DNA of 64,000 nucleotides. It comes from a virus. Taxonomy: Duplodnaviria; Caudoviricetes. Both the position numbers and the translations under genes were made by a program. The stretch covers positions 160,067 through 224,066 of the IMG/VR virus record IMGVR_UViG_3300029288_000067; one strand, written 5' to 3'. A model generated the notes under the pieces. It did not search any database, had not been told where the DNA came from, and was given only the letters and a program-made list of their open reading frames with translations. Each line of letters starts with the position of its first letter. Positions within the stretch are counted from its first letter, which is position 1. Of this stretch, positions 4,493-60,020 are shown in pieces.

Positions 4493-4611
4493 ACAGAAAA
4501 GCTCCTGATGGTTTAAAATTCAGTCCGGTATTAATGAGGGTCTCACGATGATATTACTATATAATTTGTATCATTTTTCATAACAATAATCTGAGATATT
4601 CTACCACAATT

Positions 4612-46468: not shown

Positions 46469-48118
46469 ATGAACAAGAAGATTTTTGCAAACTCTACGGC
46501 TACCAAGAAAGTTCCTGTGGCTGATACCAAAAATTTGGCGGGTGGGAAAGCCTACAGCATGACCGATGAACATGCCCTTGCACAGATTGCTTCTACGGGC
46601 TGTTTCGGCAACACCTACTATGCCAACGCGGAAGATCAGCTTGAGAAGGTCCTTGAATTGGTAAAGAAGGTAGATCCGGTCTTTGTTGCAAAATTGGCTG
46701 TGTACTCTCGGAAAGAGGGCTACATGAAGGATATGCCTGCAGTTCTTGCCGCGTATCTTTCCACGGTGGATGCCGGATTGCTCCGTAAAATTTTCGCACA
46801 AGTTGTTGATAATGGGAAGATGTTGCGGAACTTCTTTCAGGCAATCAAATCGGGGAAGTTTGGTCGTACGTCTTTCGGACGGGCTCCAAGTTCCCTCATT
46901 CAGGGGTGGTTTGACTCCCACGATGAAGATTACATTTTCCGGAACAGTATTGGAAATGATCCTTCATTCTCGGATATCATCCACAACATCCACATCAAGC
47001 CAAAAAATAAGGCCCGGGAAGCCCTTTACGGTTACATCATGGGTAAGAAAGTAGTAACAAATGCGAAGGACATGGTTAAATCCAAGTCCGGCAAGTTTGT
47101 TACCGTACAAGAAAAAACCCTCCCGGGCATCGTTCGAGAGTATGAGGCATTCAAACGATTCAAGTTGGACGGGAAGAAGTGTGTTGGTCTCCCGGATGTT
47201 CCTTTCCAGATGTTGGATAGTCTCAACCTCTCCTCTGAAGATTGGAAGGAAGTTGCAAAAAATGCCCCGTGGCATATGTGCCGTATGAACTTGAACACCT
47301 TCATGCGTCATGGTGTATTTGCCGATTCTGAAATGGTGACTTTGATTGCAGATAAGTTGAAAAATGAGTATGCAATCAAGAAATCCAAGGTATTCCCATA
47401 CCAGTTGTTCTCTGCCTTCACGTATGCGGATGCGGCAATGCCACATGCTATTCGGGAAGCCTTGCAGGATGCTTTGGATGTTTCTCTCTACAATGTTCCG
47501 GAGATGGCGGGGAATATTGTGGTGTGTCCTGATGTTTCTGGAAGCATGAAATCTCCTATCACGCAGGCCCGGGGAGTTGCTTCTAAGATTCGCTGTGTGG
47601 ATGTTGCCGGTCTTGTGGCCTCTGCTATCCTCCGAAAGAATAAGAGTGCTCGGGTTATTCCTTTCGAGAATGATGTTGTGAATATTCCTCTGAATTCTCG
47701 GGACTCCGTAATGACCAATGCGGCAAAACTTGCTGCGGTTGGTGGTGGTGGAACTTGTTGCGCGGCCCCTCTTGTCAAGCTCATCAAAGAAGATGCAAAG
47801 GTTGATTTGATCGTGTATGTCTCCGATAATGAATCTTGGATCAACCCAGCAAGACACACGGGATATGGGTGGGGAAGAACATCGACAAGTGGAACCGCTG
47901 TAATGGATCTTTTCCAGAAGTTGAAGCACAAGAATCCGAATTTGAAGATGGTTTGTATTGATCTCACCCCGAATACAACCCTGCAGGCTCCTGACCGAAA
48001 GGACATCCTCAACATCGGGGGGTTCTCGGATACAGTGTTTGAATTGATGGATCTCTTCCATCAGGGTTTGTTGGATGCAAAGCATTGGGTGGATGTTGTT
48101 AAAAAAGTTCAACTTTAA
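46469..48118 (+). CDS. rsr: Ro60/TROVE-domain RNA-binding protein (Rsr-like)
   Basis: NLAGGKAY, TGCFGNTYY, GYMKDMP, MNLNTF.RHGVF, VFPYQL; vWA DVSGSM, GGGT, SDNESW, IGGFSD. Confidence 0.95.
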   Translation: MNKKIFANSTATKKVPVADTKNLAGGKAYSMTDEHALAQIASTGCFGNTYYANAEDQLEKVLELVKKVDPVFVAKLAVYSRKEGYMKDMPAVLAAYLSTVDAGLLRKIFAQVVDNGKMLRNFFQAIKSGKFGRTSFGRAPSSLIQGWFDSHDEDYIFRNSIGNDPSFSDIIHNIHIKPKNKAREALYGYIMGKKVVTNAKDMVKSKSGKFVTVQEKTLPGIVREYEAFKRFKLDGKKCVGLPDVPFQMLDSLNLSSEDWKEVAKNAPWHMCRMNLNTFMRHGVFADSEMVTLIADKLKNEYAIKKSKVFPYQLFSAFTYADAAMPHAIREALQDALDVSLYNVPEMAGNIVVCPDVSGSMKSPITQARGVASKIRCVDVAGLVASAILRKNKSARVIPFENDVVNIPLNSRDSVMTNAAKLAAVGGGGTCCAAPLVKLIKEDAKVDLIVYVSDNESWINPARHTGYGWGRTSTSGTAVMDLFQKLKHKNPNLKMVCIDLTPNTTLQAPDRKDILNIGGFSDTVFELMDLFHQGLLDAKHWVDVVKKVQL

Positions 48119-48121
48119 CGC

Positions 48122-48150
48122 TTGCATAAAACAAAATGTTGTGGTAAGGT
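48122..48150 (+). promoter_or_regulatory. sigma70-type promoter of the Y-RNA/tRNA operon
   Basis: TTGCAT-17 nt-TAAGGT with extended TGn; overlapped by a 14-bp inverted repeat (48138-48182). Confidence 0.65.
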
Positions 48151-48185
48151 AGAAACGTAAGGACAAAATACCTTACCACAACTAC

Positions 48186-48222
48186 AGCCCCCCTAAAGGG
48201 CTAGGTCTTTGAATAATTAAAT
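48186..48222 (+). promoter_or_regulatory. boxB/boxA-like antitermination site
   Basis: Hairpin AGCCC/GGGCT then GGTCTTTGAATAATTAAAT. Confidence 0.55.
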
Positions 48223-48229
48223 AGTTAAA

Positions 48230-48300
48230 AACTGGAACTACCGAGTGGTTTACATTTGTATCATCACAAAACCAAACAACTACTCAAAATTTGTCCAGTT
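48230..48300 (+). ncRNA. Y-RNA-like element 1 (minimal)
   Basis: AACTGGA/TCCAGTT outer stem, ACTAC loop, GAGTGGTT/AACTACTC inner stem, TACA. Confidence 0.75.
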
Positions 48301-48308
48301 CGATTTTA

Positions 48309-48455
48309 AGGTGGAAACTACGCAAGGGATTACATGGACATTAAATCCCCCGCTGTAAAAAGCATGTAGGTTCGAGTCCTACTCTCCCCACTCATGGGGA
48401 GATGGCGAAATTGGTAGACGCAGGAAAAAAATATCTCTTCATCTTTGATCCACCT
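48309..48455 (+). ncRNA. Y-RNA-like element 2 (permuted tRNA-Leu-like domain)
   Basis: AGGTGGA/TCCACCT stem; T-arm, then loop-closed acceptor TCTCCCCA-CTCA-TGGGGAGA, then D-arm. Confidence 0.85.
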
Positions 48456-48471
48456 GATTTTATAAGTTAGT

Positions 48472-48537
48472 GCTTGAAACTATCCGAGGGATTACATTTT
48501 TTGGTAAAATAACAATCTCTCACTATTTTGTTCAAGC
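48472..48537 (+). ncRNA. Y-RNA-like element 3 (minimal)
   Basis: GCTTGAA/TTCAAGC and GAGGGATT/AATCTCTC stems. Confidence 0.75.
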
Positions 48538-48540
48538 CAT

Positions 48541-48613
48541 AGGGTATTAGTTCAGCGGCTTAGAATCCTGGCTTGTCACGCCGGAGACACGGGTTCAAAT
48601 CCCGTATACCCTG
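48541..48613 (+). tRNA. tRNA-Asp(GTC)
   Basis: Cloverleaf, acceptor AGGGTAT/ATACCCT, loop TTGTCAC. Confidence 0.9.
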
Positions 48614-48614
48614 C

Positions 48615-48750
48615 TGTGAGGAAACTACCAAAAAGGGGTTACTTCAATGTTAATGACGTGATGGGGGTTCGAGTCCCCTCCTGGAGGTCTAACTTCTGGG
48701 TAGTTTAATGGTAAAACCCGAAAAATACCTCTTTATTTTTGTTCCTCATA
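48615..48750 (+). ncRNA. Y-RNA-like element 4 (permuted tRNA domain, GTT loop remnant)
   Basis: TGTGAGGAA/TTCCTCATA stem; T-arm before D-arm TAGTTTAATGGTAAAAC. Confidence 0.85.
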
Positions 48751-48753
48751 TAT

Positions 48754-48826
48754 GCCCTCATCGAATAATGGCTTAGTTCGCCAGCCTTTCAAGTTGGAAA
48801 TACCGGTTCAAATCCGGTTGGGGGTA
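48754..48826 (+). tRNA. tRNA-Glu(TTC)
   Basis: Cloverleaf, loop CTTTCAA. Confidence 0.9.
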
Positions 48827-48829
48827 CTG

Positions 48830-48975
48830 GATCGAGATACTGTCACAAGGTTTACAACGCGGATCTTTGGCCATGGGTTCGAGTCCCATTCCTCCCCCTG
48901 TAGGAGTTCTATGGGGAGGATAGCTCAGTTGGTAGAGCAAAAGAATAAAATAACTTTGTATTTTTGATCTCGATC
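48830..48975 (+). ncRNA. Y-RNA-like element 5 (permuted tRNA domain)
   Basis: GATCGAGA/TCTCGATC stem; T-arm, TCCTCCCC/GGGGAGGA, TAGCTCAGTTGGTAGAGC. Confidence 0.85.
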
Positions 48976-48983
48976 ATCTTTTT

Positions 48984-49094
48984 CTGTAAGAGACTCACAA
49001 AGGGATTACATTTTAAGTTCAATTCTTAATTCCCCCACTCACGGGGGAATAGCCTAAATGGTAAAGGCAAATCTCTTATTACTCGCTCTTACAG
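48984..49094 (+). ncRNA. Y-RNA-like element 6 (compact YrlA-like)
   Basis: CTGTAAGAG/CTCTTACAG stem; T-arm, TTCCCCC-ACTCAC-GGGGGAA, D-arm. Confidence 0.85.
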
Positions 49095-49098
49095 TCTT

Positions 49099-49181
49099 GC
49101 GGGAGTGGTGGAACGGCAGACACGCAAGTTCGAGAGACTTGTGGGCGAAAGCTCGTGAAGGTTCAACTCCTTTCTTCCGCA
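49099..49181 (+). tRNA. tRNA-Leu(GAG)
   Basis: Class II cloverleaf, loop TCGAGAG (C33 atypical), A73. Confidence 0.8.
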
Positions 49182-49222
49182 CTGTATGTGGACAAAGATC
49201 CGGACAAAATGACCGAGTAGTT

Positions 49223-49352
49223 TCAAGGCACTACAAAAGGGTTTACAGGATATGTCGCCTAAATGGTAAGGCAGCTTCTATGGAAATAGGAGAAGATTTT
49301 CGGTTCAACTCCGAATGTACCCCCAGACCTAACTCTTTTCATTTGGCCTTGA
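49223..49352 (+). ncRNA. Y-RNA-like element 7 (non-permuted tRNA-like cargo ending CCA)
   Basis: TCAAGGC/GCCTTGA stem enclosing D-arm, hairpin, T-arm and CCA at 49248-49325. Confidence 0.8.
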
Positions 49353-49355
49353 TTT

Positions 49356-49437
49356 GCCAGCATGGCGAAATTTGGTAGACGCAGCAGACTTAGGATCTGC
49401 CGGTTAATCCGTGGGGGTTCGATTCCCTCTGTTGGCA
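49356..49437 (+). tRNA. tRNA-Leu(TAG)
   Basis: Class II cloverleaf, loop CTTAGGA. Confidence 0.92.
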
Positions 49438-49441
49438 TTGT

Positions 49442-49594
49442 ATACGAGAAAACTACACAAGGGATTACATTACGCATAGGCTTGTTAAGCCTTGGCAACT
49501 TATGTGGGTTCGAGTCCCACCTGTGTTGAGAGTTATTAACACTGTGGCGGAATTGGTCTTGTTGCCATAATCTCTTAACCTTTGTTTCTCGTAT
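49442..49594 (+). ncRNA. Y-RNA-like element 8 (tRNA permuted in the D-loop)
   Basis: ATACGAGAAA/TTTCTCGTAT stem; AGGC-TTGTTAA-GCCT arm, T-arm, acceptor, TGGCGGAATTGGT. Confidence 0.8.
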
Positions 49595-49597
49595 CTT

Positions 49598-49669
49598 GGG
49601 GCTTTAGTTTAGGTGGGAAAACGTGGGCTTTGCAAGCCTAAATCCTCGGATCATACCCGGGAAGCTCCA
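49598..49669 (+). tRNA. tRNA-Ala(TGC)
   Basis: G3:U70 pair, loop TTTGCAA, atypical T-loop ATCATAC. Confidence 0.8.
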
Positions 49670-49706
49670 TTCTTATCTTTCTGCATATCAAATAAAGGAA
49701 ATATAC

Positions 49707-50399
49707 ATGCATTTTTACCACTTCGGGTATTATGATCATGACTCCCACTCTGACCGGGCTTTCATGCATGAGAAAAAATATACCAAGGCACAATTAGAGA
49801 GCTTTTTTACGAAAGCAACAATTTCTGTTTTCAATAAAAAGTGTGTTGAGGAATATTCGGACTTTATTAAGGAAACTATTCCGGATGCAGAAACCTTTCT
49901 TTCTTTTTGGGAAGAGCTTAAAAGTGCTCATGAGAAAGACACAGAAGAATATGTGTCAGATCTGTTTCATTTCATCCAAAAAAACCGGCACACTTTTAAA
50001 TACCGGGATAAAGATGCCCCGGATACGCCAAATGACGCATTTGACAAATATTTCCAGATCGAGCCCTATGACAAGGCTTACTATATGGAAAAAACCAAGC
50101 ACCTTGTATATATGTCAGAGCACGTCTCGGACATGATCTGTTTTATTTATGAAGTTCTGGAAAAAGAGTATGGGTTTATTCCCGTGAAGTTTGAGACGGA
50201 TTTTTATGTAAACAATATCAATTTTTACAGTTGCGGGTGGGATACACAGCCCTTTGATAAAAAATTTGCATCTCGGGTTCGGAGAGAAACAAATAAGCAA
50301 TTGAAAGATTTATCGGAGCATTTCAAAAAGATCTTGCCAAAAGAAACAAAGGGTGTTAAGATTTATCTTTGTCACAAGTATCCAAAAACAGCCTCTTAA
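49707..50399 (+). CDS. hypothetical protein inserted in the RNA operon
   Basis: Start moved to MHFYHF after an AAGGA RBS; the upstream ORF part overlaps tRNA-Ala. Confidence 0.7.
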   Translation: MHFYHFGYYDHDSHSDRAFMHEKKYTKAQLESFFTKATISVFNKKCVEEYSDFIKETIPDAETFLSFWEELKSAHEKDTEEYVSDLFHFIQKNRHTFKYRDKDAPDTPNDAFDKYFQIEPYDKAYYMEKTKHLVYMSEHVSDMICFIYEVLEKEYGFIPVKFETDFYVNNINFYSCGWDTQPFDKKFASRVRRETNKQLKDLSEHFKKILPKETKGVKIYLCHKYPKTAS

Positions 50400-50462
50400 C
50401 TCAGTTGGTAGAGTGTCTGCTTTACACGCAGATTGTCGTCGGTTCAATCCCGGCAGAGGCTA
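50390..50462 (+). tRNA. tRNA-Val(TAC)
   Basis: Cloverleaf, loop TTTACAC; overlaps the upstream stop codon. Confidence 0.9.
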
Positions 50463-50463
50463 C

Positions 50464-50584
50464 TGCAAGGAACTACGAAGGGGATTACAAGGATAAAATC
50501 TCTACCTCCGTGTAGTGGTGAGAGTGTTCGAAGCACTCAAAACAGTCGAAAGGCTGTTCAATCTCTTTCATTTTTGTCCTTGTA
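50464..50584 (+). ncRNA. Y-RNA-like element 9
   Basis: TGCAAGGA/TCCTTGTA stem, GAAGGGGATT/AATCTCTTTC; T-arm-like GAGTG-TTCGAAG-CACTC and a GAAA hairpin. Confidence 0.8.
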
Positions 50585-50587
50585 TTT

Positions 50588-50671
50588 GCCGGGATGGCGG
50601 AACTGGTATACGCGCAAGTCTCAAACACTTGTGGGAGCAATCTCTTGGGGGTTCGAGTCCCCCTCCCGGCA
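50588..50671 (+). tRNA. tRNA-Leu(CAA)
   Basis: Class II cloverleaf, loop CTCAAAC. Confidence 0.92.
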
Positions 50672-50698
50672 CTGTTTACATCTACAGGAGATACATAA

Positions 50699-51184
50699 AT
50701 GAGCAGTCTTTATTCCGACATTATTTGGGATAAATTGGGTCATAAGGATGTAGTAATCCCCAATCTTTCCGAAAAAGAAATTTTGGGTTACTTCAAAGAA
50801 TACCTGAGCAAAGCATCAAAAGAGGATATCGAGGCTTTGTTGGAAGACCTTGTTTGTAATTTCCAAATCACAAAGAATGTGGATTGGTATGATGGTCCTA
50901 TCCATGTTTGCAAAGTGGTAACGCATGAAGATCATGTAAGGCATCTTCCAGAAGATCCTGGATGGGTGGAAATGAAAGCACATATGATGGAGCTTTCTAT
51001 TCTGCCTCTTCTTATTCGATTGTTTTCAGCCTTTCCTCAGTATCTGGATGACATTGAAACAATTAAATTGTTTGTGGAGAAGATGAATGAAAAAAAGCCC
51101 TCTGAGGGGAAAAAAGATTCCGAAGTGTGTCCTACAAAAAAGGACGATCTCCTTCCACAACAATTACCCGAAGAAAAGGTATGA
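50699..51184 (+). CDS. hypothetical protein
   Basis: 161 aa, AGGAG RBS. Confidence 0.7.
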   Translation: MSSLYSDIIWDKLGHKDVVIPNLSEKEILGYFKEYLSKASKEDIEALLEDLVCNFQITKNVDWYDGPIHVCKVVTHEDHVRHLPEDPGWVEMKAHMMELSILPLLIRLFSAFPQYLDDIETIKLFVEKMNEKKPSEGKKDSEVCPTKKDDLLPQQLPEEKV

Positions 51185-51200
51185 TTTTTATTGGGCAATA

Positions 51201-51356
51201 ATGAGTATCCTGCCGGAATCCTTTACAATGAAAGAGGCAGCGAAGTTACTTTCATATTCACTTTCACATACCCGAAAGCTTATCTGTGAGTTGAAAGAGA
51301 TAGGTCAGGTCTTTTTATCCCCGGAGAATATATGGGTGAAAGAAAAAAAGGAATAG
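51201..51356 (+). CDS. small HTH protein
   Basis: FTMKEAAKLLSYSLSHTRKLI. Confidence 0.5.
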   Translation: MSILPESFTMKEAAKLLSYSLSHTRKLICELKEIGQVFLSPENIWVKEKKE

Positions 51357-51520
51357 GTAAAGCAAAACTTCTGAAAGCAATACAGAAGAAATGCTTGGAG
51401 TGTTGTTGTGGGGTTTCCCGGGAAGTTCGAGAGTGCTGCATTAAAGATTGCCCCCTGTGGGAATATCGAAATACTACGGAAGTAAAAAAGCAAGAGATTG
51501 TTGTTAAATCCTTACTTTGA
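51332..51520 (+). CDS. small Cys-rich phage protein
   Basis: KAIQKKCLECC...EVREC...CPLWEYR. Confidence 0.7.
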   Translation: MGERKKGIGKAKLLKAIQKKCLECCCGVSREVRECCIKDCPLWEYRNTTEVKKQEIVVKSLL

Positions 51521-51523
51521 GCC

Positions 51524-51829
51524 TTGAGAGTGAATTATTGTACAGATGCAACCAATTACACGGGCACAGGATCAATCCTTTGTGACCAATGTACAAACTC
51601 TTGTTACTTCTCCAGTGCGAGTGATAGACCTCAAAGTGCTTGTGGGTCTTATTATTCAAAACGAGGCAAAGAAGTTACTGTTTACAATACTTCCCAGAAT
51701 CCAACCCCATGTCTTCACCAAGAGATTATCAAAGAGATTGAGCACAAGCGTCGTAAATTTTGCAAAAAGTGCAACAATCAACGTTTTATCTATCGACAAG
51801 GTAAAATGATTCCTTGCCCCCGGTGCTAA
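51524..51829 (+). CDS. Cys-rich hypothetical protein
   Basis: CDQC, CKKC, CPRC. Confidence 0.5.
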   Translation: MRVNYCTDATNYTGTGSILCDQCTNSCYFSSASDRPQSACGSYYSKRGKEVTVYNTSQNPTPCLHQEIIKEIEHKRRKFCKKCNNQRFIYRQGKMIPCPRC

Positions 51830-51886
51830 TCTTTTAATTTGTATGTGAATACTCCTTCTGTAGGAAACACAAAAGGAGTACAAGTA

Positions 51887-52582
51887 ATGCAAAGTGATCT
51901 TTTGGAACTGTCTTTTGAAGAGTGTCTTGTGTGTTCTGATTTGCACTTCCCGGGGCACTCTGTTAAATGGGTTCGAGAGTTGATCAAGTATGGACGTATG
52001 CACAACGTCAAGAAAATAATCCACTCGGGAGATTTGTTCAACTTTGATGCTCTTTCCCGGTTTGAATTGAAGGATAAAAAATTTCCCCTCGACAAAGAAT
52101 TGGAAATTGGGAAAAAGGTTCTCTTGGAGTTGAGGCAGCATTTTAACGGTTTTTACACTGTGCGGGGAAACCACGATAAGAGACTGCCTCTTGCAATGAA
52201 TGATTCTATTGATTTTGCAACAGCCTTGAATCTATTGCTCGATAACAAGGTGGTTGCAACCAATAGAGACCACCTTTTCTTATATTCCGGGGGAGAGAAA
52301 TTCCGTATCTGTCACCCAGATAAATACTCCACGGTAAAGGGTAAGGTTGCGGGTGGTTTAGCACACGATCTACAAGAACATGTTATTATGGGCCACCCAC
52401 ATTATTTTTCAATGGCTTACAACAAAACTGGGAGATATATGGCAATTGAAATGCCTTGTATGTGTGATAAAATGGCATTTCAGTATAAGAATGAAGCAAC
52501 TACTGGTTGTCCCGAGTGGAATAATGGATTTTTGCACATCAAAAAAGGGAAAGTAAGAGTAATTACCGAATTGACTTTTTAA
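51887..52582 (+). CDS. calcineurin-like metallophosphoesterase
   Basis: SDLH, GDLFN, GNHD, GHPH motifs. Confidence 0.9.
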   Translation: MQSDLLELSFEECLVCSDLHFPGHSVKWVRELIKYGRMHNVKKIIHSGDLFNFDALSRFELKDKKFPLDKELEIGKKVLLELRQHFNGFYTVRGNHDKRLPLAMNDSIDFATALNLLLDNKVVATNRDHLFLYSGGEKFRICHPDKYSTVKGKVAGGLAHDLQEHVIMGHPHYFSMAYNKTGRYMAIEMPCMCDKMAFQYKNEATTGCPEWNNGFLHIKKGKVRVITELTF

Positions 52583-52639
52583 GCCAATCTGTTTTAGAAT
52601 ACCTGCTGTAGAGCAGGTATTTTTCTTTTAGGAGAAAGT

Positions 52640-52861
52640 ATGCAAGAATATCCCCCGTTAAAAGGGAAAATGGAATTTATTGAAATAAGTCCCGAAGAGA
52701 CTATTGAGAAGAAGCCGGTTGAATATAAACAAGATGATTATTATTTGGAGAAGGAGATTAAGCCGGAAGACCTCACATGTTTTTATTGTCTCAACAAAGA
52801 TTCCTGCCCGTGCTCGGGAGATCTGTACAATACCGATGGTGATTGTTTGTGGATCAAGTAA
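52640..52861 (+). CDS. small Cys protein
   Basis: CFYC...CPC..DLYNTDGDCL; AGGAG RBS. Confidence 0.65.
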   Translation: MQEYPPLKGKMEFIEISPEETIEKKPVEYKQDDYYLEKEIKPEDLTCFYCLNKDSCPCSGDLYNTDGDCLWIK

Positions 52862-53355
52862 TCACAAGTGCAAAGACCTCCGTAAATTCCAAGAAATTAC
52901 CAGCTATTTTTAAAAAAATAGAATGTGTGTGGACTCACGGTGCAATTAATGTGGATTACGGGGGCGGAAAGTATGACATTGCCACAGATTACTTACAAGA
53001 GAAAAATATACTTAATTTGATCTATGACCCCTTCAATCGTAGTGCCGAATATAATGCTATAGTCCTTACCACACTAAGATATTACCCAGCAGACACGGCA
53101 ACAATTTCAAATGTGCTCAATGTTATTCGAGAAAAAGAGATCCGAAAAAGGGTAACTCAGCATGTCTACGATTTGTTGAAACCCGAAGGAAAAGCTTTCT
53201 TTTCTTTTTATGCGGGGGACCGTTCGGGGGTGGGAAAAGAAACCAGTAAAGGTTGGCAAGAAAACAGAATTGCCAAGAGCTATATCGTGGAAATAGAAGA
53301 AGTTTTTCCCGTGGTTTTCATCACCAATTCCATTGTTTTTGCAGAAAAACGTTGA
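52843..53355 (+). CDS. SAM-dependent methyltransferase-like protein
   Basis: VDYGGG, YDPFN, SNVLNVI, LKPEG. Confidence 0.8.
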   Translation: MFVDQVITSAKTSVNSKKLPAIFKKIECVWTHGAINVDYGGGKYDIATDYLQEKNILNLIYDPFNRSAEYNAIVLTTLRYYPADTATISNVLNVIREKEIRKRVTQHVYDLLKPEGKAFFSFYAGDRSGVGKETSKGWQENRIAKSYIVEIEEVFPVVFITNSIVFAEKR

Positions 53356-53380
53356 CTTTTTTTAAGACCCCTGATAATGT
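53352..53380 (+). promoter_or_regulatory. sigma70-type promoter
   Basis: TTGACT-17 nt-TAATGT with extended TGn. Confidence 0.6.
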
Positions 53381-53423
53381 GTAACAGTTCGTGCTAAATT
53401 TAATACATAAGGAGATTTTTTCT

Positions 53424-53792
53424 ATGACAGAAGAAATCAAGGCCCCAGAATTCAAAACCCTTTCCCCCAGTTTTTTCAAGAGAACCACCAAAAGTCAAAT
53501 TTCACATATCGTGAAATATTCGGGTGTTGCAGAAAAGATTGAGGAATACAAAAGGGCTCTGAAGGATGGGCTCTGCAAGCTTGAAGTTTTAACTCGCAAG
53601 CAGTTTGCAGATTTGACAAAGTTCGGTGTGGAAGTTCCCTTGGAATTCCGCCCGCCCATGACCGACAAGGTTAAGAATGCCCTTTTGTCGAAACGGCATG
53701 TGGATCGTCTGTGGATGGAATTTGGTATCAAAGCTCCTGATGCAATGCTTCCTGTGAAGAAGCCCCGTGTGAAGAAAACTCCTGCGGCATAA
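53424..53792 (+). CDS. basic hypothetical protein
   Basis: Start trimmed to MTEEIK after AAGGAG; followed by a terminator-like hairpin at about 53804-53841. Confidence 0.7.
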   Translation: MTEEIKAPEFKTLSPSFFKRTTKSQISHIVKYSGVAEKIEEYKRALKDGLCKLEVLTRKQFADLTKFGVEVPLEFRPPMTDKVKNALLSKRHVDRLWMEFGIKAPDAMLPVKKPRVKKTPAA

Positions 53793-53855
53793 TAACTGCC
53801 CTCTTGGGGGAGTCTCTTTTCGGAGGCTCCCCCAAATTTTTTAAAAGAGAAATAC

Positions 53856-54785
53856 ATGAAAAAATTTATTTTCCTGCAAGCACATCTGAAAGAAATACAG
53901 AATATGTTTTTGGCAAAAGGGGATAATATCCGGATGTCTGCATTATTTAATGGCATCAAGGGTGTGGGGAAATACTCTTTCATAAAAGACACAATTAAAA
54001 AATGGAATTGCTCTTCGCAGGAGGATTGTAATTGCCCGGTCTGCGAGAAAATAGATAAGAACAGTACAATGGATATTTGTGAATTCAATTCCTCGGAATC
54101 AATACAGGACTTTCGAAAAAGCTTGCAACAATTTCAGAATACTCCCCCGATGGAATTGAGGCATAAGTATTTGATTTTGCGGAATATGGACTATTACAGC
54201 AAAGAGATTATTGATTTGTTGTTGAAGACAATTGAAGAAAAAACAAATTTCCATATTTTTGCTACTGCTGTGGATATCGATAGAATTCGCCCCGCAATGT
54301 TATCCCGTTTTAAAAGATATTTTGTGAGCAATTATTCCCGGGAGGATCTGAAGAGTATTATCTCACATGATTTTAAATTGGCATATTTGTCAAATATGGA
54401 AAATAAGTATCCGTTTTCATCTATCTTTGAGATGGATGTATTTTTCCGATTTGCTTTCTCAAATTATTACAGCCTTCTTTTTGAAAAGGCAAAAACACCC
54501 ACAGATATTATCATGTCTGTAAATTCTTTTATGTCCCCGATAAATGCCTTACCAATCTGTGAAAAGCTGCCAACAATTGGGGCCTTTATCGAGTACTGCA
54601 TGATACAGGTCCGGGAAGAATCCTCGGAGAGATACCAACAGTATTTGCGAAAAGTTCTTTCTCGGTATTCCCCCTCGCTCTTGTCCAATTTGAATAATCC
54701 GGAATATTATGCACAAATCAATTTGGACAATCAGATAATGTCCTTGTTTCTCAGCTTGTTTATTTTAAAATCTATTGTGGAATAA
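53856..54785 (+). CDS. clamp-loader subunit, delta-prime (HolB)-like
   Basis: GIKGVGK, C..C.C..C Zn motif, LLKTIEE, MLSRF. Confidence 0.75.
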   Translation: MKKFIFLQAHLKEIQNMFLAKGDNIRMSALFNGIKGVGKYSFIKDTIKKWNCSSQEDCNCPVCEKIDKNSTMDICEFNSSESIQDFRKSLQQFQNTPPMELRHKYLILRNMDYYSKEIIDLLLKTIEEKTNFHIFATAVDIDRIRPAMLSRFKRYFVSNYSREDLKSIISHDFKLAYLSNMENKYPFSSIFEMDVFFRFAFSNYYSLLFEKAKTPTDIIMSVNSFMSPINALPICEKLPTIGAFIEYCMIQVREESSERYQQYLRKVLSRYSPSLLSNLNNPEYYAQINLDNQIMSLFLSLFILKSIVE

Positions 54786-54787
54786 AT

Positions 54788-55777
54788 ATGCAAGACATTG
54801 ATTTTCTGTTGTCCGAAAAGCCACAAATAAAGCGGCTGATGACATACGTACATTCTTTGGGGGTTCTGAAAGGACCCCTCGTGAAGAAGTACCGGAGCAT
54901 TTTGCAAAACAAAGAGTATGAGATTCGGGAAATTTCTGAGGAAAATATTCGGGACCTGCAGGCGGGATCCTTGTTCGGTAGTGTGGCATTTTTAATTAAT
55001 TTTCAAACGTACTCCGAAGAATTTTTGAAAAAAATGATGGACACATACGCCGATGGGGATAATAAATGCCTTATCTGTATGTCAGCCGAAGAATTTAAAA
55101 AGGTGAAAGAAAATTCAAAAGAGTTTGCAAAAGAACTGAATCCCATTTTCGAGGTTGAAAAAGATAAAGAGAATTTCAAGAGTGTTTGTCAATATGTCCT
55201 ACAAAAAGAGTTGGGCTGTGCCGAAGGAGACTTTAATAACTACCCCGTTTTTAAAGTAGCAATAGAGGATCTGTATTTCAACCACACAGAGAATATTTTA
55301 GACTTTTTCAGTAATTTTCATTTTATTTCTAATATCTGTATTCAACAAACAGGAGAAAAGATTGATTTTGATCTTTCCTTGTTTCGAAAAATTCTTCCGG
55401 AAATAAGGAAAAAGGAATACTACAAGGCACATATTTTGTTGGGTACCTTCATAAAGTATCCCAACAAAGATACCCTTGCACCTCTTTTCTCTTTTGTCTC
55501 CGCAGTGGTGAAAGATGCAACAATGATTCGGTATGCTCTGGATACAATCTATCGAACAACTTTTGAATTGTTGCAATTACATCCCTCTTTCGAGGGCGCA
55601 AAACATAACTTCAGTGAGTTCAAAGTAAAACAACTTTCTGGGGTTGCAAATATTCCTCTTGTGAATACTTTTCAGTTCATGGTAAGATTCTCAGAGATGG
55701 AAGTGGTTTTCAATAAGAGAAACTTCTTGTTGAATTTTCACAATTTTTTGATGGATCTTTTAAAGGTAATTAGATAA
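54788..55777 (+). CDS. clamp-loader subunit, delta (HolA)-like (tentative)
   Basis: Size, GSLFG motif and position next to the holB-like gene. Confidence 0.45.
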   Translation: MQDIDFLLSEKPQIKRLMTYVHSLGVLKGPLVKKYRSILQNKEYEIREISEENIRDLQAGSLFGSVAFLINFQTYSEEFLKKMMDTYADGDNKCLICMSAEEFKKVKENSKEFAKELNPIFEVEKDKENFKSVCQYVLQKELGCAEGDFNNYPVFKVAIEDLYFNHTENILDFFSNFHFISNICIQQTGEKIDFDLSLFRKILPEIRKKEYYKAHILLGTFIKYPNKDTLAPLFSFVSAVVKDATMIRYALDTIYRTTFELLQLHPSFEGAKHNFSEFKVKQLSGVANIPLVNTFQFMVRFSEMEVVFNKRNFLLNFHNFLMDLLKVIR

Positions 55778-56263
55778 GTGCCTGCCTTCGATAAAAACAC
55801 TTTTGCATACTTACTTACAAAATGTATGCAAAGTCATAAGAGAGAAGACTTTGACACCATTTATGCCCAACTTGTTAAAAAGCTGGGATTAGGTGGGTGT
55901 GGGTTTCATTCGGATAAAATGCAAGAGCCTTGTTACCCCTGTCTTCGTGAATTGATTGATACCTTGGGCCTTCTCGTTTTTCCATTCATTGGACCAAATG
56001 TTGATGAATACTTGGTGGTGAATTCCCTTCTTTTCTTGGAGACTCCAAAGCAAGATGTAATTGTTCCCGATGCTTTGTATCTCTTGCCCGAGGGGGGTTA
56101 TTGGGGGAGAATCTCACAAGTCTTTTCATCCTCCGATCTGCTGGTTATTGAATATGCTCCAGAGGTTTTTATTAGTTTAAAGAAATCTGTTCTCTATAAA
56201 TTTTTCAAGGAAGACGTGGGCTACTACGGTATTTGCATAGGGTCCGTAAAAAAGAAAAAATAA
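55778..56263 (+). CDS. hypothetical protein
   Basis: 161-aa ORF abutting the upstream stop. Confidence 0.6.
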   Translation: MPAFDKNTFAYLLTKCMQSHKREDFDTIYAQLVKKLGLGGCGFHSDKMQEPCYPCLRELIDTLGLLVFPFIGPNVDEYLVVNSLLFLETPKQDVIVPDALYLLPEGGYWGRISQVFSSSDLLVIEYAPEVFISLKKSVLYKFFKEDVGYYGICIGSVKKKK

Positions 56264-56267
56264 ATTG

Positions 56268-56296
56268 TTGACGCAACCGAAGAGACGTGTTAGAGT
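56268..56296 (+). promoter_or_regulatory. sigma70-type promoter of tRNA operon 2
   Basis: TTGACG-17 nt-TAGAGT with extended TGn. Confidence 0.7.
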
Positions 56297-56319
56297 TGAA
56301 GACAGGAGCTAACAAGAAA

Positions 56320-56421
56320 ATGAAGAAGTTTAATAAACATAGTTTTATTAGTTTTTCCGGAATCAAATCCGGAAATGCTTCCTCACACTCTTGTTGGTAT
56401 AATGGAGCGAACCGCATCTAG
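56320..56421 (+). CDS. putative leader peptide (33 aa)
   Basis: Manual translation MKKFNKHSFISFSGIKSGNASSHSCWYNGANRI; AGGAG at 56304-56308. Confidence 0.6.
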   Translation: MKKFNKHSFISFSGIKSGNASSHSCWYNGANRI

Positions 56422-56498
56422 TTTCTCCTAAGCCCTCGAAGAGTAGGATTAACAGGAAGCGGTAGCCGAAAGGCATAATCGCTCCATTTTGTGTTTTA
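56401..56498 (+). promoter_or_regulatory. attenuator-like multi-stem structure
   Basis: AATGGAGCGA/TCGCTCCATT closing stem, ACCGC/GCGGT, GCC-GAAA-GGC, then a T-rich tract. Confidence 0.6.
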
Positions 56499-56500
56499 CT

Positions 56501-56518
56501 GATATTTGAAAACTAAAT
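56501..56518 (+). promoter_or_regulatory. boxA-like site
   Basis: GATATTTGAAAACTAAAT directly before the first tRNA. Confidence 0.5.
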
Positions 56519-56531
56519 CTTGTCAAGTCAC

Positions 56532-56603
56532 AGGTCGCTGGTGAAATTGGAATCATTGCTGTCTCCAAAATAGTAGTTTCGGGTTCGAGTCCCGGGCGGC
56601 CTG
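56532..56603 (+). tRNA. tRNA-Trp(CCA)
   Basis: Cloverleaf, loop CTCCAAA. Confidence 0.88.
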
Positions 56604-56605
56604 CT

Positions 56606-56690
56606 GGTATGTGTATCCAAGTGGTTAAAGGGGGTAGATTGTGGATCTACTGGCTTCGTGCCTTCGCGGGTTCAAATCCCGTCACATACC
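56606..56690 (+). tRNA. tRNA-His(GTG) with long variable arm
   Basis: G-1:C73, loop TTGTGGA, V-arm GGC-TTCGT-GCC. Confidence 0.85.
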
Positions 56691-56696
56691 CCGTAT

Positions 56697-56783
56697 GGAG
56701 AAGTGGCAGAGCCCGGTTTATTGCATCACGGTGCTAACGTGAAGTGGGGAAACTCACCACAGGTTCAAATCCTGTCTTCTCCG
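56697..56783 (+). tRNA. tRNA-Ser(GCT)
   Basis: Class II, loop GTGCTAA, G73. Confidence 0.9.
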
Positions 56784-56859
56784 CTGGTCTGAATCCAAAA
56801 TTATAGGGGGATGCTATGTCACAGCTAAACGCAATGTAAAAAAGAGACGTGGGTTTGTC

Positions 56860-57150
56860 TTGTTGGGGGAAACAAAAGAAGGTTATAAAGTGGTGGGAAA
56901 TGTTTTTCTGTTGTGTGAATCCCGGGGACTTCCACTGGAATTCATAATTGACTCTTTAAAAGATGAAGGTTTTGTGATATCATGGGTAGACTTCTACGAG
57001 GATTCCTTAAATGCTCTGTGGAGTCCTGAAACAACCTTATCCAAGATTCAAAATGCCCTTAATGAGACATACGGAAAAGAATATAGCAATGATGTAATAC
57101 TTCGGTTACGGGCTTACATTGGTTCAAAGCACACTGGAGAGGTCGCATAG
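56860..57150 (+). CDS. small protein resembling an alanyl-tRNA synthetase helical segment
   Basis: VFLLCESRGLPLEFI...EGFVISWVDF resembles AlaRS AFxLYDTYGFPxD...GLxVDxxGF; start uncertain. Confidence 0.6.
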   Translation: MLGETKEGYKVVGNVFLLCESRGLPLEFIIDSLKDEGFVISWVDFYEDSLNALWSPETTLSKIQNALNETYGKEYSNDVILRLRAYIGSKHTGEVA

Positions 57151-57220
57151 TGGTCTAGTGCGCTCGCTTGGAAAGCGAGTAGGCGTAACAGCCTCGGGGG
57201 TTCGACTCCCCCTCTCTCCG
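57136..57220 (+). tRNA. tRNA-Ser(GGA)
   Basis: Class II, loop TTGGAAA. Confidence 0.92.
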
Positions 57221-57284
57221 CTGAAATGTAATAAAAGAAAGGATAAATCAGTGTATGGATTCCGATGGTTTTTGTGGTTCATGA

Positions 57285-57357
57285 GCCGGGAAAGCTAATC
57301 TGGTGAAAGCGTTGGACTGAAAATCCAAAGAGGTCAGATCGTAACTGACTCCCGGCA
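57285..57357 (+). tRNA. tRNA-Phe(GAA)
   Basis: Loop CTGAAAA; atypical A8 and T-loop ATCGTAA. Confidence 0.8.
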
Positions 57358-57364
57358 TTGTTTT

Positions 57365-57455
57365 GGGTAGGCTGCTAAGTTTGGTGCTTTAGCACGAGTC
57401 TGTAAAACTCGGCCCTAACGGGATAAGATAATAGGTTCGATTCCTATCCTACCCA
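57365..57455 (+). tRNA. tRNA-Tyr(GTA)
   Basis: Loop CTGTAAA, long variable region, atypical D-arm. Confidence 0.8.
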
Positions 57456-57468
57456 CTGAATGTTGAAT

Positions 57469-57553
57469 GCGTAGGTGCCCGAGTGGTCGAAGGGAGGGGT
57501 CTGCAAAACCCCCGGGATAACACCCCACGTTGGTTCAAATCCATCCCTACGCT
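57469..57553 (+). tRNA. tRNA-Cys(GCA) with long variable arm
   Basis: Loop CTGCAAA, U73, V-arm GGG-ATAACA-CCC. Confidence 0.85.
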
Positions 57554-57562
57554 TAGATATTT

Positions 57563-57634
57563 GGGAACGTAGCTCAATGGTTGAGCAACTGGCTGTTAAC
57601 CAGTAGGTTGCAGGTTCAAGCCCTGCCGTTCCCG
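57563..57634 (+). tRNA. tRNA-Asn(GTT)
   Basis: Cloverleaf, loop CTGTTAA. Confidence 0.92.
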
Positions 57635-57644
57635 CTGTTGCAAT

Positions 57645-57791
57645 ACTCACAGGAGTTATATACAGATAGACCGAAATTTGAATGGGGGTAGGTTTTTGCA
57701 AGAACTCAAACCCAAAGGTCTGAAACCGGGACACTCGGATAAATAGACCGTTAATTGTAGGGAACATTGTGAAATCCTGTATTCTGTGGGT
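57645..57791 (+). ncRNA. unclassified structured RNA candidate
   Basis: ACTCACAGGA/TTCTGTGGGT and ATACAG/CTGTAT closing stems; internal AGACC/GGTCT and CCGGG/CTCGG. Confidence 0.45.
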
Positions 57792-57802
57792 TCAATTTGT
57801 TT

Positions 57803-57883
57803 GCCACATTAGCCTAGCGGTAAGGCATCTGGCTGTAAACCAGACGGGGAAACCTATCGGTGGTTCAAATCCATCATGTGGCA
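57803..57883 (+). tRNA. tRNA-Tyr(GTA), second copy
   Basis: Loop CTGTAAA, A73, short V-arm GG-GAAA-CC. Confidence 0.85.
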
Positions 57884-57892
57884 TTGGAAAAC

Positions 57893-57963
57893 GGGTTCAT
57901 AGCTCAACGGTAGAGCATCTGACTTTTAATCAGTCGATGATGGTTCAATTCCATCTGGACCCA
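57893..57963 (+). tRNA. tRNA-Lys(TTT)
   Basis: Cloverleaf, loop CTTTTAA. Confidence 0.92.
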
Positions 57964-57984
57964 TTGTTTTGAAAGGTGTGACAT

Positions 57985-58230
57985 ATGAAAAAATATTCTG
58001 TCCGGTTCGAACATCCTTATGTGGGTAACAAAGGTGAATGTGCTTTTGTCTGTGTTCTTGCAGAAAATGAGCGGGATGCAATTGCACAATCTAAGGTTTT
58101 GTTGAAAAAGGAAATAAAAGAATCCAATTGTAAGGAATACCCCGTAAAAGATTCCTATTTTCATGCCTATCCGGATAGAAATGGGGTTGTCGGGGAAAAG
58201 AAAGTGTATGATGGAGATGAGCGATTGTAG
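57985..58230 (+). CDS. hypothetical protein
   Basis: 81 aa between tRNAs, AAGGTG RBS. Confidence 0.6.
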   Translation: MKKYSVRFEHPYVGNKGECAFVCVLAENERDAIAQSKVLLKKEIKESNCKEYPVKDSYFHAYPDRNGVVGEKKVYDGDERL

Positions 58231-58235
58231 TGTTT

Positions 58236-58308
58236 CGGGCGATTGTACAGTTGGTAGTACGCCACTCTGATATGGTGGAGGTCGGCGGTTCGATTCCGCC
58301 TCGCCCGA
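58236..58308 (+). tRNA. tRNA-Ile(GAT)
   Basis: Cloverleaf, loop CTGATAT. Confidence 0.9.
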
Positions 58309-58390
58309 TTGTACGTTCAGATTTTCAGAATGTTCGCGGATGTTGAACAAGAGGAAAATCTGAACGCAGGCTCTACGAAAGGGTTTCTAA

Positions 58391-58476
58391 GGAAGGTTGG
58401 CAGAAAGGCTATTGCACCAGTCTTGAAAACTGGAAATCCTGCAAAGGGTTTGTGGGTTCGAGTCCCACACCTTCCT
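58391..58476 (+). tRNA. tRNA-Ser(TGA)
   Basis: Class II, loop CTTGAAA, U73. Confidence 0.88.
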
Positions 58477-58492
58477 CTGAGAAAGGATTGAT

Positions 58493-58681
58493 ATGGGGAA
58501 TACAAAAGAAGTGAATGAAGCTCTTATCCGGGTGCTTGACAAGATGAAGAAAGATCCGGATCTGAAGAAGAAGTTTGATGAGCATAAACCGGGGTGGATT
58601 TACTGGTCTCTTTTGGATTCAGGGGCTTTTCCCGATGAAGATGAACAGATTCCCGGGCAGAATATTAAGAAACTAAAATAA
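58493..58681 (+). CDS. hypothetical protein
   Basis: 62 aa, AAGGA RBS. Confidence 0.6.
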   Translation: MGNTKEVNEALIRVLDKMKKDPDLKKKFDEHKPGWIYWSLLDSGAFPDEDEQIPGQNIKKLK

Positions 58682-58748
58682 GACTTGCAAACAACATAAA
58701 AACGTGGTGTAATCTATGCACCACGTTTTTTATCTTTTGGGAGGAAAA

Positions 58749-60020
58749 TTGATTTCACTTCCTTTAAAACACAGACCACAAAGGTTTGAGGATTTAATAG
58801 GGCAACCTTTGTTGGTGAGATATCTTAAGAGTATTTCTAAGAAGAAAATAGCAAAAAGTCTTATCTTCTTTGGGGGTTATGGGTGTGGGAAAACATCTTC
58901 GGCAAGGATATATGCGAAGAGCTTGAATTGTTTGTCCCCTGTAGATGGTTCCCCCTGCTTCATTTGTGACTCCTGCAAGGAGAATTTAACCCTTGAGGTG
59001 GATGCATCTACCGCAGGGGCAAAGGAAAATCTTTTGGCATTGTTGGAGGTTGCAAAGAATCCTCCGTTGCTGGGTCAATACCGGGTGATTATTCTTGATG
59101 AAGTGCAGAATATGAGTAAAGCCGCGTGGGACTCTTTGTTGAAGCCTATTGAAGAACCCAAGCCTTTTCAAGTCTTTATTCTTTGTACAACCGAGGTAGA
59201 AAAAATTCGACCTTCTATCAGATCCCGCTGTCAACAATTAGAGGTCAAGAATTTGTCGGATACTTCCAGTATGGACTATTTGCAAGATATTTGCAAAAAA
59301 GAGGGGCTGCAATATGAGGAAACCGCTCTTTCCATTATTACTCATTTCTCAAAAGGATCTTTGCGGGATTTGATTAATTACTTGGAACAGGTTTCATACA
59401 TGGGTGATATTACTGTTGAAAATACCTCGGTTATCTTCAATTTAGGATTTTTAACCCCCCTGTTTACAACCTTTGCATCCTTGTTTACCCTGGGGACAAA
59501 AACTTTCCGGCAACAAATACAGAGCTTCGGGGAATCTCCCAAGAAAATTGCAGAATTTTTGAAACAACTCTCATTATTTTTGTTGTATCGAAATGTAAGA
59601 AATGATAGCAGTGTTGAAACAAATCCGGCATTCGCTCTTATTCCAGAGCAAGACCTAAGAAATATGTGGAAATTGGTCCAAGGTGTTTTTGGGGTTAATT
59701 GTGAACAGAAATACAGTGACTTTTTGAATAAAGTAAATGCAATGCAAGATTCCTCCCTTATTTCTTTGGAAATTGCTCTTTTGGATTTACATGATTTCTT
59801 ACATAGGGCTACGATTACAACAACTGGAACAATCTCCCCCACGGAAGAAAATAAAACCCCGGCAAAAAAACCTCGCAGACAATTTTTGCATCTCCCAACA
59901 AATGGAGTAGTTAAGGAAGTTCCCCCGATTACCGTAGAAGAAAAAACAATTGCACAACAAATGCTTGATTCCGGCCTTGTAACAGAGTTGGATCAATCCG
60001 GCATTGTTATCAAGGAGTAA
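58749..60020 (+). CDS. dnaX: DNA polymerase III gamma/tau clamp-loader subunit
   Basis: KHRPQRFEDLIGQ, GGYGCGKTS, Zn Cys, LDEVQNMS, LLKPIEEP, SRC, GSLRD; probable TTG start after GGAGG. Confidence 0.92.
   Translation: MISLPLKHRPQRFEDLIGQPLLVRYLKSISKKKIAKSLIFFGGYGCGKTSSARIYAKSLNCLSPVDGSPCFICDSCKENLTLEVDASTAGAKENLLALLEVAKNPPLLGQYRVIILDEVQNMSKAAWDSLLKPIEEPKPFQVFILCTTEVEKIRPSIRSRCQQLEVKNLSDTSSMDYLQDICKKEGLQYEETALSIITHFSKGSLRDLINYLEQVSYMGDITVENTSVIFNLGFLTPLFTTFASLFTLGTKTFRQQIQSFGESPKKIAEFLKQLSLFLLYRNVRNDSSVETNPAFALIPEQDLRNMWKLVQGVFGVNCEQKYSDFLNKVNAMQDSSLISLEIALLDLHDFLHRATITTTGTISPTEENKTPAKKPRRQFLHLPTNGVVKEVPPITVEEKTIAQQMLDSGLVTELDQSGIVIKE

Follow-up and report, generated by a model that had tools for sequence, protein, structure and literature searches.

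Positions 56268-56531 of the phage DNA studied here are probably a transcription attenuator of the ribosome-mediated (leader-peptide) kind, which would gate a tRNA operon of the phage. This reading is based on sequence features and their statistics, on alternative pairings found in silico, and on the recurrence and frame conservation of the unit in relatives. From these observations we infer that the leader is translated, that transcription can terminate ahead of the operon, and that the outcome responds to tRNA supply. The first-pass annotation of this DNA had proposed a translated leader that is matched to the operon tRNAs and gates a transcription stop. The core of that proposal is supported by the relatives; the identity of the terminator and the logic of the switch are revised below.

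The source record is a 224,066-bp genome of an uncultured IMG/VR virus that is about 90% complete. The window, i.e., the whole stretch of 64,000 nucleotides that was analysed, is its final 64 kb. The only sequencing run listed with this stretch is a DNA run of a landfill metagenome, which is probably the source sample; no RNA run with it is listed. The genome contains 31 tRNA genes that cover all 20 amino acids and are grouped in three clusters:

Cluster 1, minus strand: Arg, Thr, Met, Gly, Gln and Pro
Cluster 2, window 48.5-50.7 kb: Asp, Glu, Leu, Ala and Val, interleaved with Y-RNA-like elements
Cluster 3, the operon behind the leader, 56532-58477, plus strand: 12 tRNA genes with two small protein genes among them (ARAGORN and Rfam tRNA matches)

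The tRNA genes of the operon follow in the order Trp, His, Ser-GCU, Ser-GGA, Phe, Tyr, Cys, Asn, Tyr, Lys, Ile and Ser-UGA. The same set, with three genes for Ser and two for Tyr, had been named in the first-pass annotation and is confirmed here. Leader-like ORFs were also sought at the two other tRNA clusters of the genome, and none were found.

Several tRNA genes of this genome have an unusual shape. In the operon, tRNA-His (GTG, 56607-56692) and tRNA-Cys (GCA, 57469-57553) are 85-86 nt long and apparently have long variable arms, which is unusual for these specificities; both reach the Rfam tRNA threshold (51.6 and 50.8 bits, respectively). In cluster 2 (48230-50560) the tRNAs are interleaved with repeated structured elements that have common short scaffold motifs, and weak matches to the Rfam family YrlA (Y-RNA-like) are found at 48632-48737 and 48851-48965. 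The same cluster includes an ARAGORN-called tRNA with a four-base anticodon (GGAA, 49248-49324) and an Rfam tRNA-like match that is spread over 124 nt (48914-49037), which suggests an insertion or a permuted form.

The operon lies among replication genes. Clamp-loader genes and dnaX are adjacent in relatives (L010, 8114-8703) but are separated here by about 2.4 kb (window 55778-58716). This intervening DNA consists of the leader, the 12 tRNAs and three small ORFs. The relatives L010-L018, which were found via the DnaX neighbour (a NusG-like/exonuclease-like protein), have adjacent clamp-loader genes and no tRNA array there. The array is thus a lineage-specific insertion or cargo, and for the same reason synteny cannot be used to find its relatives. 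A 197-kb relative (G001) has a block of three tRNAs without a leader, and no relatives were found for the upstream 161-aa protein, which is an orphan. A DNA similarity search of 50,697 phage records gave only generic single-tRNA matches. Scans of viral contigs for exact patterns (a 21-mer from tRNA-Trp and an 18-mer from the leader) gave only unrelated loci.

A promoter-like site, an AGGAG and a short ORF had been noticed ahead of the operon, and all three are present:

56268-56296, plus strand: sigma-70-like promoter, with -35 TTGACG (56268-56273), a 17-nt spacer, TG (56288-56289) and -10 TAGAGT (56291-56296)
56305-56309, plus strand: Shine-Dalgarno sequence AGGAG, 10 nt 5' of the ATG
56320-56421, plus strand: leader ORF of 33 codons and a stop codon, which starts 24 nt past the -10 element

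Transcription is predicted to start at about 56301-56304. The promoter has 9 of 12 matches in a consensus scan, together with an extended -10. Taken alone it is weak, as the scan finds 5 sites in 3.5 kb and 6.0 are expected by chance; stronger TTGACA / TATAAT-like promoters occupy the same relative position in related units. AGGAG is found ahead of 9.7% of the long ORFs of this genome and at 1.2% of random positions. The phage thus uses AGGAG-type sites.

The composition of the leader peptide mirrors the operon. All nine amino acids served by the operon tRNAs are present, and they make up 26 of the 32 non-initiator residues (0.81). The Ser codons of the leader (AGT, TCC, TCT and TCA) fit the anticodons GCT, GGA and TGA of the three tRNAs-Ser. 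Leu, Asp, Glu and Val are absent, as are Thr, Pro and Gln. Codons for Gly, Ala and Arg, which have their tRNAs in the other clusters, fall within the last six codons of the ORF. The earlier statements on matched residues, Ser isoacceptors and the missing Leu, Asp, Glu and Val therefore hold in every detail.

The statistical comparison that had been suggested for this composition shows an enrichment above chance. Background short ORFs have a mean fraction of the nine amino acids of 0.45-0.47 (standard deviation 0.11-0.12), and none of the 579 short ORFs in the window reaches 0.81. Of the genome's 566 ATG ORFs with 28-45 codons, the leader ORF scores highest, and it ranks 6th among 10,447 nested ORFs. 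When the ORF was shuffled 20,000 times with its dinucleotides preserved, a single shuffle attained 26 of 32. The element's two remaining frames score 0.47 and 0.33. It had been cautioned that Lys, Phe, Asn, Ile and Tyr are favoured by AT-rich DNA. In view of the shuffles, the other frames and the short-ORF background, AT-rich codons do not explain the enrichment.

The RNA is predicted to be highly structured. Positions 56301-56524 fold as one nested structure (-75 kcal/mol, z = -7.5), and every domain is significant alone. In the minimum-free-energy fold the predicted 5' end of the RNA pairs with 56518-24, and the Shine-Dalgarno sequence lies inside a helix. The parts of the structure that matter for the proposed switch are listed below.

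56308-56317, plus strand: helix 5' strand, the region between the Shine-Dalgarno sequence and the ATG, which pairs with codons 24-27 in the minimum-free-energy fold
56389-56398, plus strand: helix 3' strand, which covers Ser24, Cys25, Trp26 and Tyr27
56392-56400, plus strand: predicted control codons Cys25-Trp26-Tyr27 (UGU-UGG-UAU), from ribosome-mask folding
56402-56410, plus strand: segment 1, within the ORF (codons 28-31), which can form a 9-bp long-range stem with segment 4 (56479-87)
56411-56430, plus strand: segment 2, which takes in the end of the ORF with its stop codon and the next 9 nt; 5' side of the antiterminator arm
56444-56463, plus strand: segment 3, which makes up the antiterminator arm on the 3' side; the last part of the segment (56455-63) doubles as the terminator 5' strand
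56455-56485, plus strand: predicted local intrinsic-terminator hairpin with a GAAA tip (-14.6 kcal/mol)
56486-56497, plus strand: U-rich tract 3' of the hairpin, with an 11-nt stretch common to L027 unit 1
56501-56512, plus strand: 12-nt box, common to the stretch just 5' of the first tRNA in related arrays

The helix between 56308-17 and codons 24-27 would, if it forms, close the ribosome-binding site after one round of translation. The predicted terminator and its U tract lie about 34-44 nt 5' of tRNA-Trp, and a consensus scan found no promoter-like site between the U tract and this gene. The 12-nt box was not found as a repeated (promoter) motif in this genome.

Folding predicts that segment 2 pairs with the terminator 5' strand before the 3' strand exists, and that a ribosome on the last codons or the stop codon abolishes this pairing. 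For each position of the ribosomal A site we also computed the partner of the terminator 3' strand (ribosome-mask folding):

No ribosome, or codons up to 24: the 3' strand pairs with 56402-10 (long-range stem)
Cys25, Trp26 or Tyr27: the 3' strand has no local partner, since 56411-30 occupies 56455-63
Codon 28 to the stop codon: the 3' strand pairs with 56455-61 (local terminator)

These results change the earlier picture of the switch, in which a stem between 56401-10 and 56488 was the terminator and a stalled ribosome masked it. The 9-bp long-range stem and the U-rich tract are present in the sequence, but the predicted terminator that is conserved is the local hairpin at 56455-56485. The dependence of folding on ribosome position is also borne out in silico, though it works through the alternative hairpins (56411-30/56444-63) and not only through steric masking of the long-range stem. 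The antiterminator 56411-30/56444-63 competes with the local terminator, and hence the logic is of the classical alternative-hairpin kind.

The role of the long-range stem would determine which codons are sensed. The run Ser-His-Ser-Cys-Trp-Tyr (56383-56400), which had been pointed out in the first-pass annotation, ends directly 5' of the stem 56402-10/56479-87, after which the U-rich tract follows. In a simple masking model the long-range stem is disturbed only by ribosomes on codons 25-34, and 20 of the 26 matched residues lie within the first 24 codons. If the long-range stem terminates transcription, the modelled switch would answer mainly to decoding of Cys, Trp and Tyr, and stalls in the first 24 codons would turn the operon off, not on. 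Under this assumption only about three codons of the run, Cys25, Trp26 and Tyr27, would give read-through in the folding model. If the long-range stem does not terminate, the unit would act like its relatives, and any delay before codon 28 would lead to read-through.

The search for relatives made use of the operon itself, since the two small proteins embedded in it have homologues within tRNA arrays of other uncultured phages. The first (56860-57150) is a conserved protein of about 80-96 aa that belongs to no Pfam family and is found in tRNA arrays of many uncultured phages (L027-L031, L041-L056). In most loci a tRNA, mostly for Ser, Thr or Val, lies within a few hundred bases 3' of it, and in this window its frame extends 15 nt into tRNA-Ser. 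The second (57985-58230) has 81 aa and homologues with 38-52% identity (L032, L037). Besides homologues in tRNA arrays, this protein has some that lie in ordinary gene rows (L033-L040); of three further ones, P0021 and P0024 lie outside arrays, and P0022 is on an array fragment without an array head.

A similar unit recurs at the heads of such arrays. It consists of a strong sigma-70-like promoter, a Shine-Dalgarno sequence with ATG, an ORF of 35-50 codons, and a canonical hairpin with a T-run, and the first tRNA lies 15-120 nt 3' of the T-run. A mechanical unit finder reports exactly one unit in this window and one per listed relative contig:

L027, L028, L030, L044 and L045: units of one type (L027 type)
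L032, L043 and L052: further relatives with a unit, each separate from the L027 type

When the tRNA condition is removed from the criteria of the finder, it reports 12 units in 448 kb of this genome, and so a unit would be met by chance in 0.9% of 320-nt stretches. No close relatives of this exact unit were found, and its link to the others is formed by short common stretches and by architecture. This unit and the L027 type have in common a 13-nt stretch of the ORF, the tract after the terminator and the 12-nt box 5' of the first tRNA. The 13-nt stretch, shared with L027 unit 1, corresponds to leader codons 6-10 and occurs once in this genome. In the alignment the local hairpin corresponds to the canonical terminators of the related units; the stem sequences differ and still pair.

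The presence of a unit is not universal. In two related large contigs (L041 and L054) no unit precedes the first tRNA that was called within the examined part of the array. A crude block screen for leaders in three unrelated phages (a 642-kb uncultured phage, Ochrobactrum phage vB_OspM_OC and Aeromonas phage Akh-2) gave no clear signal, with some hints of leaders in the 642-kb phage. The statistic needs larger blocks than the one to three tRNAs present there.

Some peculiarities of the related arrays should be mentioned. In L027 two paralogous leader units (800-1078 and 1079-1443) stand in tandem before tRNA-Asn, and the same is true for L030; they may represent tandem attenuation, or the first may be a remnant of a tRNA block that was lost. 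Unit 2 has a small hairpin (L027 1112-1140) located 3' of the -10 element and 5' of the Shine-Dalgarno sequence. In comparison with L044 and L028 this hairpin apparently keeps its pairing through a change on both strands, from G-C to A-U, and it may be a 5' stabiliser. L030 has a 195-aa ORF with HNH endonuclease-like motifs (1191-1778) that is inserted between tRNA-Asn and tRNA-Asp relative to L027; homing endonucleases may reshuffle these tRNA arrays. Finally, L054 contains at 4425-4520 a tRNA-like sequence that ARAGORN did not call. It ends with CCA, and about 25 nt are inserted past its anticodon region, so that this array may be headed by a tRNA with an intron.

A potential antiterminator is a common property of the units. 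The 3' part of each unit's ORF has a stretch that is similar to the terminator 3' strand and can pair with the terminator 5' strand before the 3' strand is transcribed. The terminator stem sequences differ among the units, and the ORF stretch changes along with them. Even with the full terminator present, the minimum-energy fold of L052 and of L032 is the antiterminator. The fraction of shuffled controls that reach the observed pairing is 0.05 for this window, 0.07 to 0.32 for three L027/L028 units and 0/300 for L032. Taken unit by unit this control is weak overall, being moderate for this window and strong for L032; GC-rich strands find partners easily.

Matched residues tend to precede the pairing stretch. 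Across the units they make up 82 of 153 residues 5' of it and 12 of 49 from the stretch onward (Fisher p = 2.8e-4), and in this window 23 of 26 before segment 2 and 3 of 6 from segment 2 on. This contrast is partly expected anyway, because segment 2 and the corresponding pairing stretches are GC-rich.

The peptides also follow the tRNA content of their arrays, which the first-pass annotation had proposed to check. In a 5 x 5 table of peptides and tRNA sets, each of the five independent units has its highest z-score with its own set, and the diagonal is the top of 120 permutations. The following examples illustrate this:

L027 type: tRNAs seen are Asn, Asp, Glu, His, Ser and Lys; the peptide has Asp and Glu
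L032: tRNAs seen are Ser, Asn (three) and Glu (four); the peptide is rich in Ser, Asn and Glu and has no Asp
L052: tRNAs seen are Lys, Lys, Ala and Ile, and then the contig ends; 18 of the 19 residues 2-20 are Lys, Ala, Ile, Thr, Asn or Val

The arrays of L054 and L041, which are homologous to that of L052, go on with Thr, Asn and Val. Codons for Asp or Glu are present in the leaders only where tRNA-Asp or tRNA-Glu follow. Most of the relatives' arrays are truncated by contig ends; the missing tRNAs should make the match poorer and not create it.

In related units the ORF is also conserved as a reading frame. Among five close variants of the L027-type unit 2, the two indels within the ORF are of 9 and 3 nt. 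The six indels outside it are of 1, 2, 1, 4, 1 and 1 nt and are located in the 5' leader, the gap between the stop codon and the terminator, the loop of the terminator and the region 3' of it. Within the conserved 3' half, several changes at third positions are synonymous. This evidence for a kept frame comes from the related unit-2 variants, as the exact unit of this window has no close relative.

Other explanations of the element should be weighed against this evidence. It could be an ordinary gene for a small protein with its own promoter and terminator that lies ahead of the array by chance. The tRNAs would then come from leaky read-through or a different start, and the peptide would either act in trans or be inactive. 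Unit 1 of L027 has such an arrangement, with promoter, ORF and terminator followed by unit 2 and not by tRNAs. The peptide around codons 6-10 is common to units, which composition sensing alone does not require, and L032 has a TTGACA between the terminator and the first tRNA. Nevertheless we consider a small-protein gene unlikely. A peptide devoid of Leu, Asp, Glu, Val, Thr, Pro and Gln would be odd for a protein, and the peptides of the five units differ widely, each fitting its own array best. Changes in the terminator stem are accompanied by changes in the 3' part of the ORF, and the gap between the U tract and tRNA-Trp is short (44 nt), with no promoter-like site found in it.

A structured non-coding RNA was our initial reading, which was dropped once the relatives showed the same unit at array heads. 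Such an RNA would be stable and would be freed between the transcription start and the RNase P cut at tRNA-Trp, with the ORF being incidental. The strong fold of 56301-56524 with its individually significant domains and paired 5' end fits this explanation, and other structured RNAs are encoded in the second tRNA cluster of the phage. The tRNA region of phage T4 also has stable RNAs of unknown role. Still, the z-score does not discriminate between the two explanations because attenuators fold strongly too, and the remaining data make a non-coding RNA improbable. A scan of 48000-59000 with 4227 Rfam models, including T-box (RF00230), gave no match within 56268-56531 even at E <= 1. The YrlA-type scaffold motifs of 48230-50560 are absent from the element, and weak YrlA matches are confined to 48632-48965. 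Moreover, nucleotide content fails to explain the frame-specific composition, and the indels in relatives are frame-preserving inside the ORF only. A random ORF in an AT-rich leader, spotted post hoc, is also to be considered: the statistic was picked after seeing the data, and five other nested ORFs of the genome score equal or higher for the same amino-acid set. But this ORF also has a Shine-Dalgarno sequence, an ATG, the proper position and a terminator, and the pattern recurs in four further independent arrays, which makes mere chance very improbable.

The leader-peptide attenuator would work as follows. Transcription would begin at about 56301-04. A ribosome would load at AGGAG and read 33 codons, nearly all of which are served by the 12 downstream tRNAs. 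The ORF end (56411-30) would pair with 56444-63 and thereby sequester the 5' strand of the hairpin 56455-85, i.e., act as an antiterminator. A fast-decoding ribosome would reach the last codons or the stop codon and cover 56411-30; the terminator would then form, and transcription would end before tRNA-Trp. If the ribosome is slowed on the matched codons, the antiterminator would stay, and the polymerase would continue into the tRNA genes. In this phage the extra strand 56402-10 may also pair with the terminator 3' strand. If the long-range stem terminates too, read-through would need a ribosome on Cys25-Trp26-Tyr27. That depletion or cleavage of host tRNAs is the trigger, as had been suggested, is a speculation.

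More generally, we tentatively suggest that large phages may carry a sensor of decoding capacity. A multi-codon leader would sample the tRNAs encoded behind it and open the operon on slow reading, and such leaders could form a widespread and so far undescribed class of tRNA-gene regulation. Codons might be read slowly if the host tRNAs were shut off or outcompeted, or if anticodon-nuclease defences cut them, and the phage would then replace exactly the failing tRNAs. If this is true, the element shows how phages time the production of their own tRNAs. It would thus bear on the debate on why phages carry tRNAs, in which codon usage, host shut-off and escape from tRNA-cutting defences are the options. 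It would also be a compact natural sensor for the decoding speed of chosen codons. For annotation it would provide a rule by which the peptide predicts the tRNAs that share one transcription unit. Our full-text search of the literature found no description of leader-peptide attenuation controlling tRNA genes.

Ribosome-mediated attenuation is textbook for amino-acid operons. Enterobacterial leaders can be multivalent, as for thr (Thr/Ile) and ilvGMEDA (Ile/Val/Leu); trpL, hisL, pheL and leuL are further examples of leaders. Like these attenuators, the phage unit has a promoter, a usable ribosome-binding site with a short ORF between the promoter and the regulated genes, and an enrichment of this ORF in codons for the sensed amino acids. 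An intrinsic terminator is predicted by sequence between the leader ORF and the first regulated gene, ahead of the structural genes. In silico it is accompanied by a mutually exclusive antiterminator that depends on ribosome position, and there is a pairing able to close the leader ribosome-binding site. The differences are also clear. The phage-encoded unit would govern 12 tRNA genes and two small ORFs, whereas in the strict sense the attenuators of amino-acid operons govern biosynthesis or synthetase genes. A single phage peptide would sample as many as nine amino acids. The unit would sense decoding capacity, i.e., the amount or integrity of tRNAs in the infected cell, and not the supply of amino acids, and a third pairing (56402-10/56479-87) replaces the classical 1:2 hairpin.

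Two other systems are close to the phage unit in what they regulate. The attenuator of E. coli pheST (phenylalanyl-tRNA synthetase) has a Phe-rich leader peptide, pheM. It, too, attenuates by means of a leader peptide, and the translation component under its control serves the very amino acid that is sensed. Unlike the phage unit, pheST is a host element that senses one amino acid and regulates a synthetase rather than tRNAs. T-box riboswitches resemble the phage unit in having a leader RNA of about 200 nt ahead of genes of the aminoacylation system and a choice between terminator and antiterminator that depends on tRNA status. However, T-boxes bind uncharged tRNA directly and without translation, whereas the phage element has a Shine-Dalgarno sequence, an ATG and an ORF.
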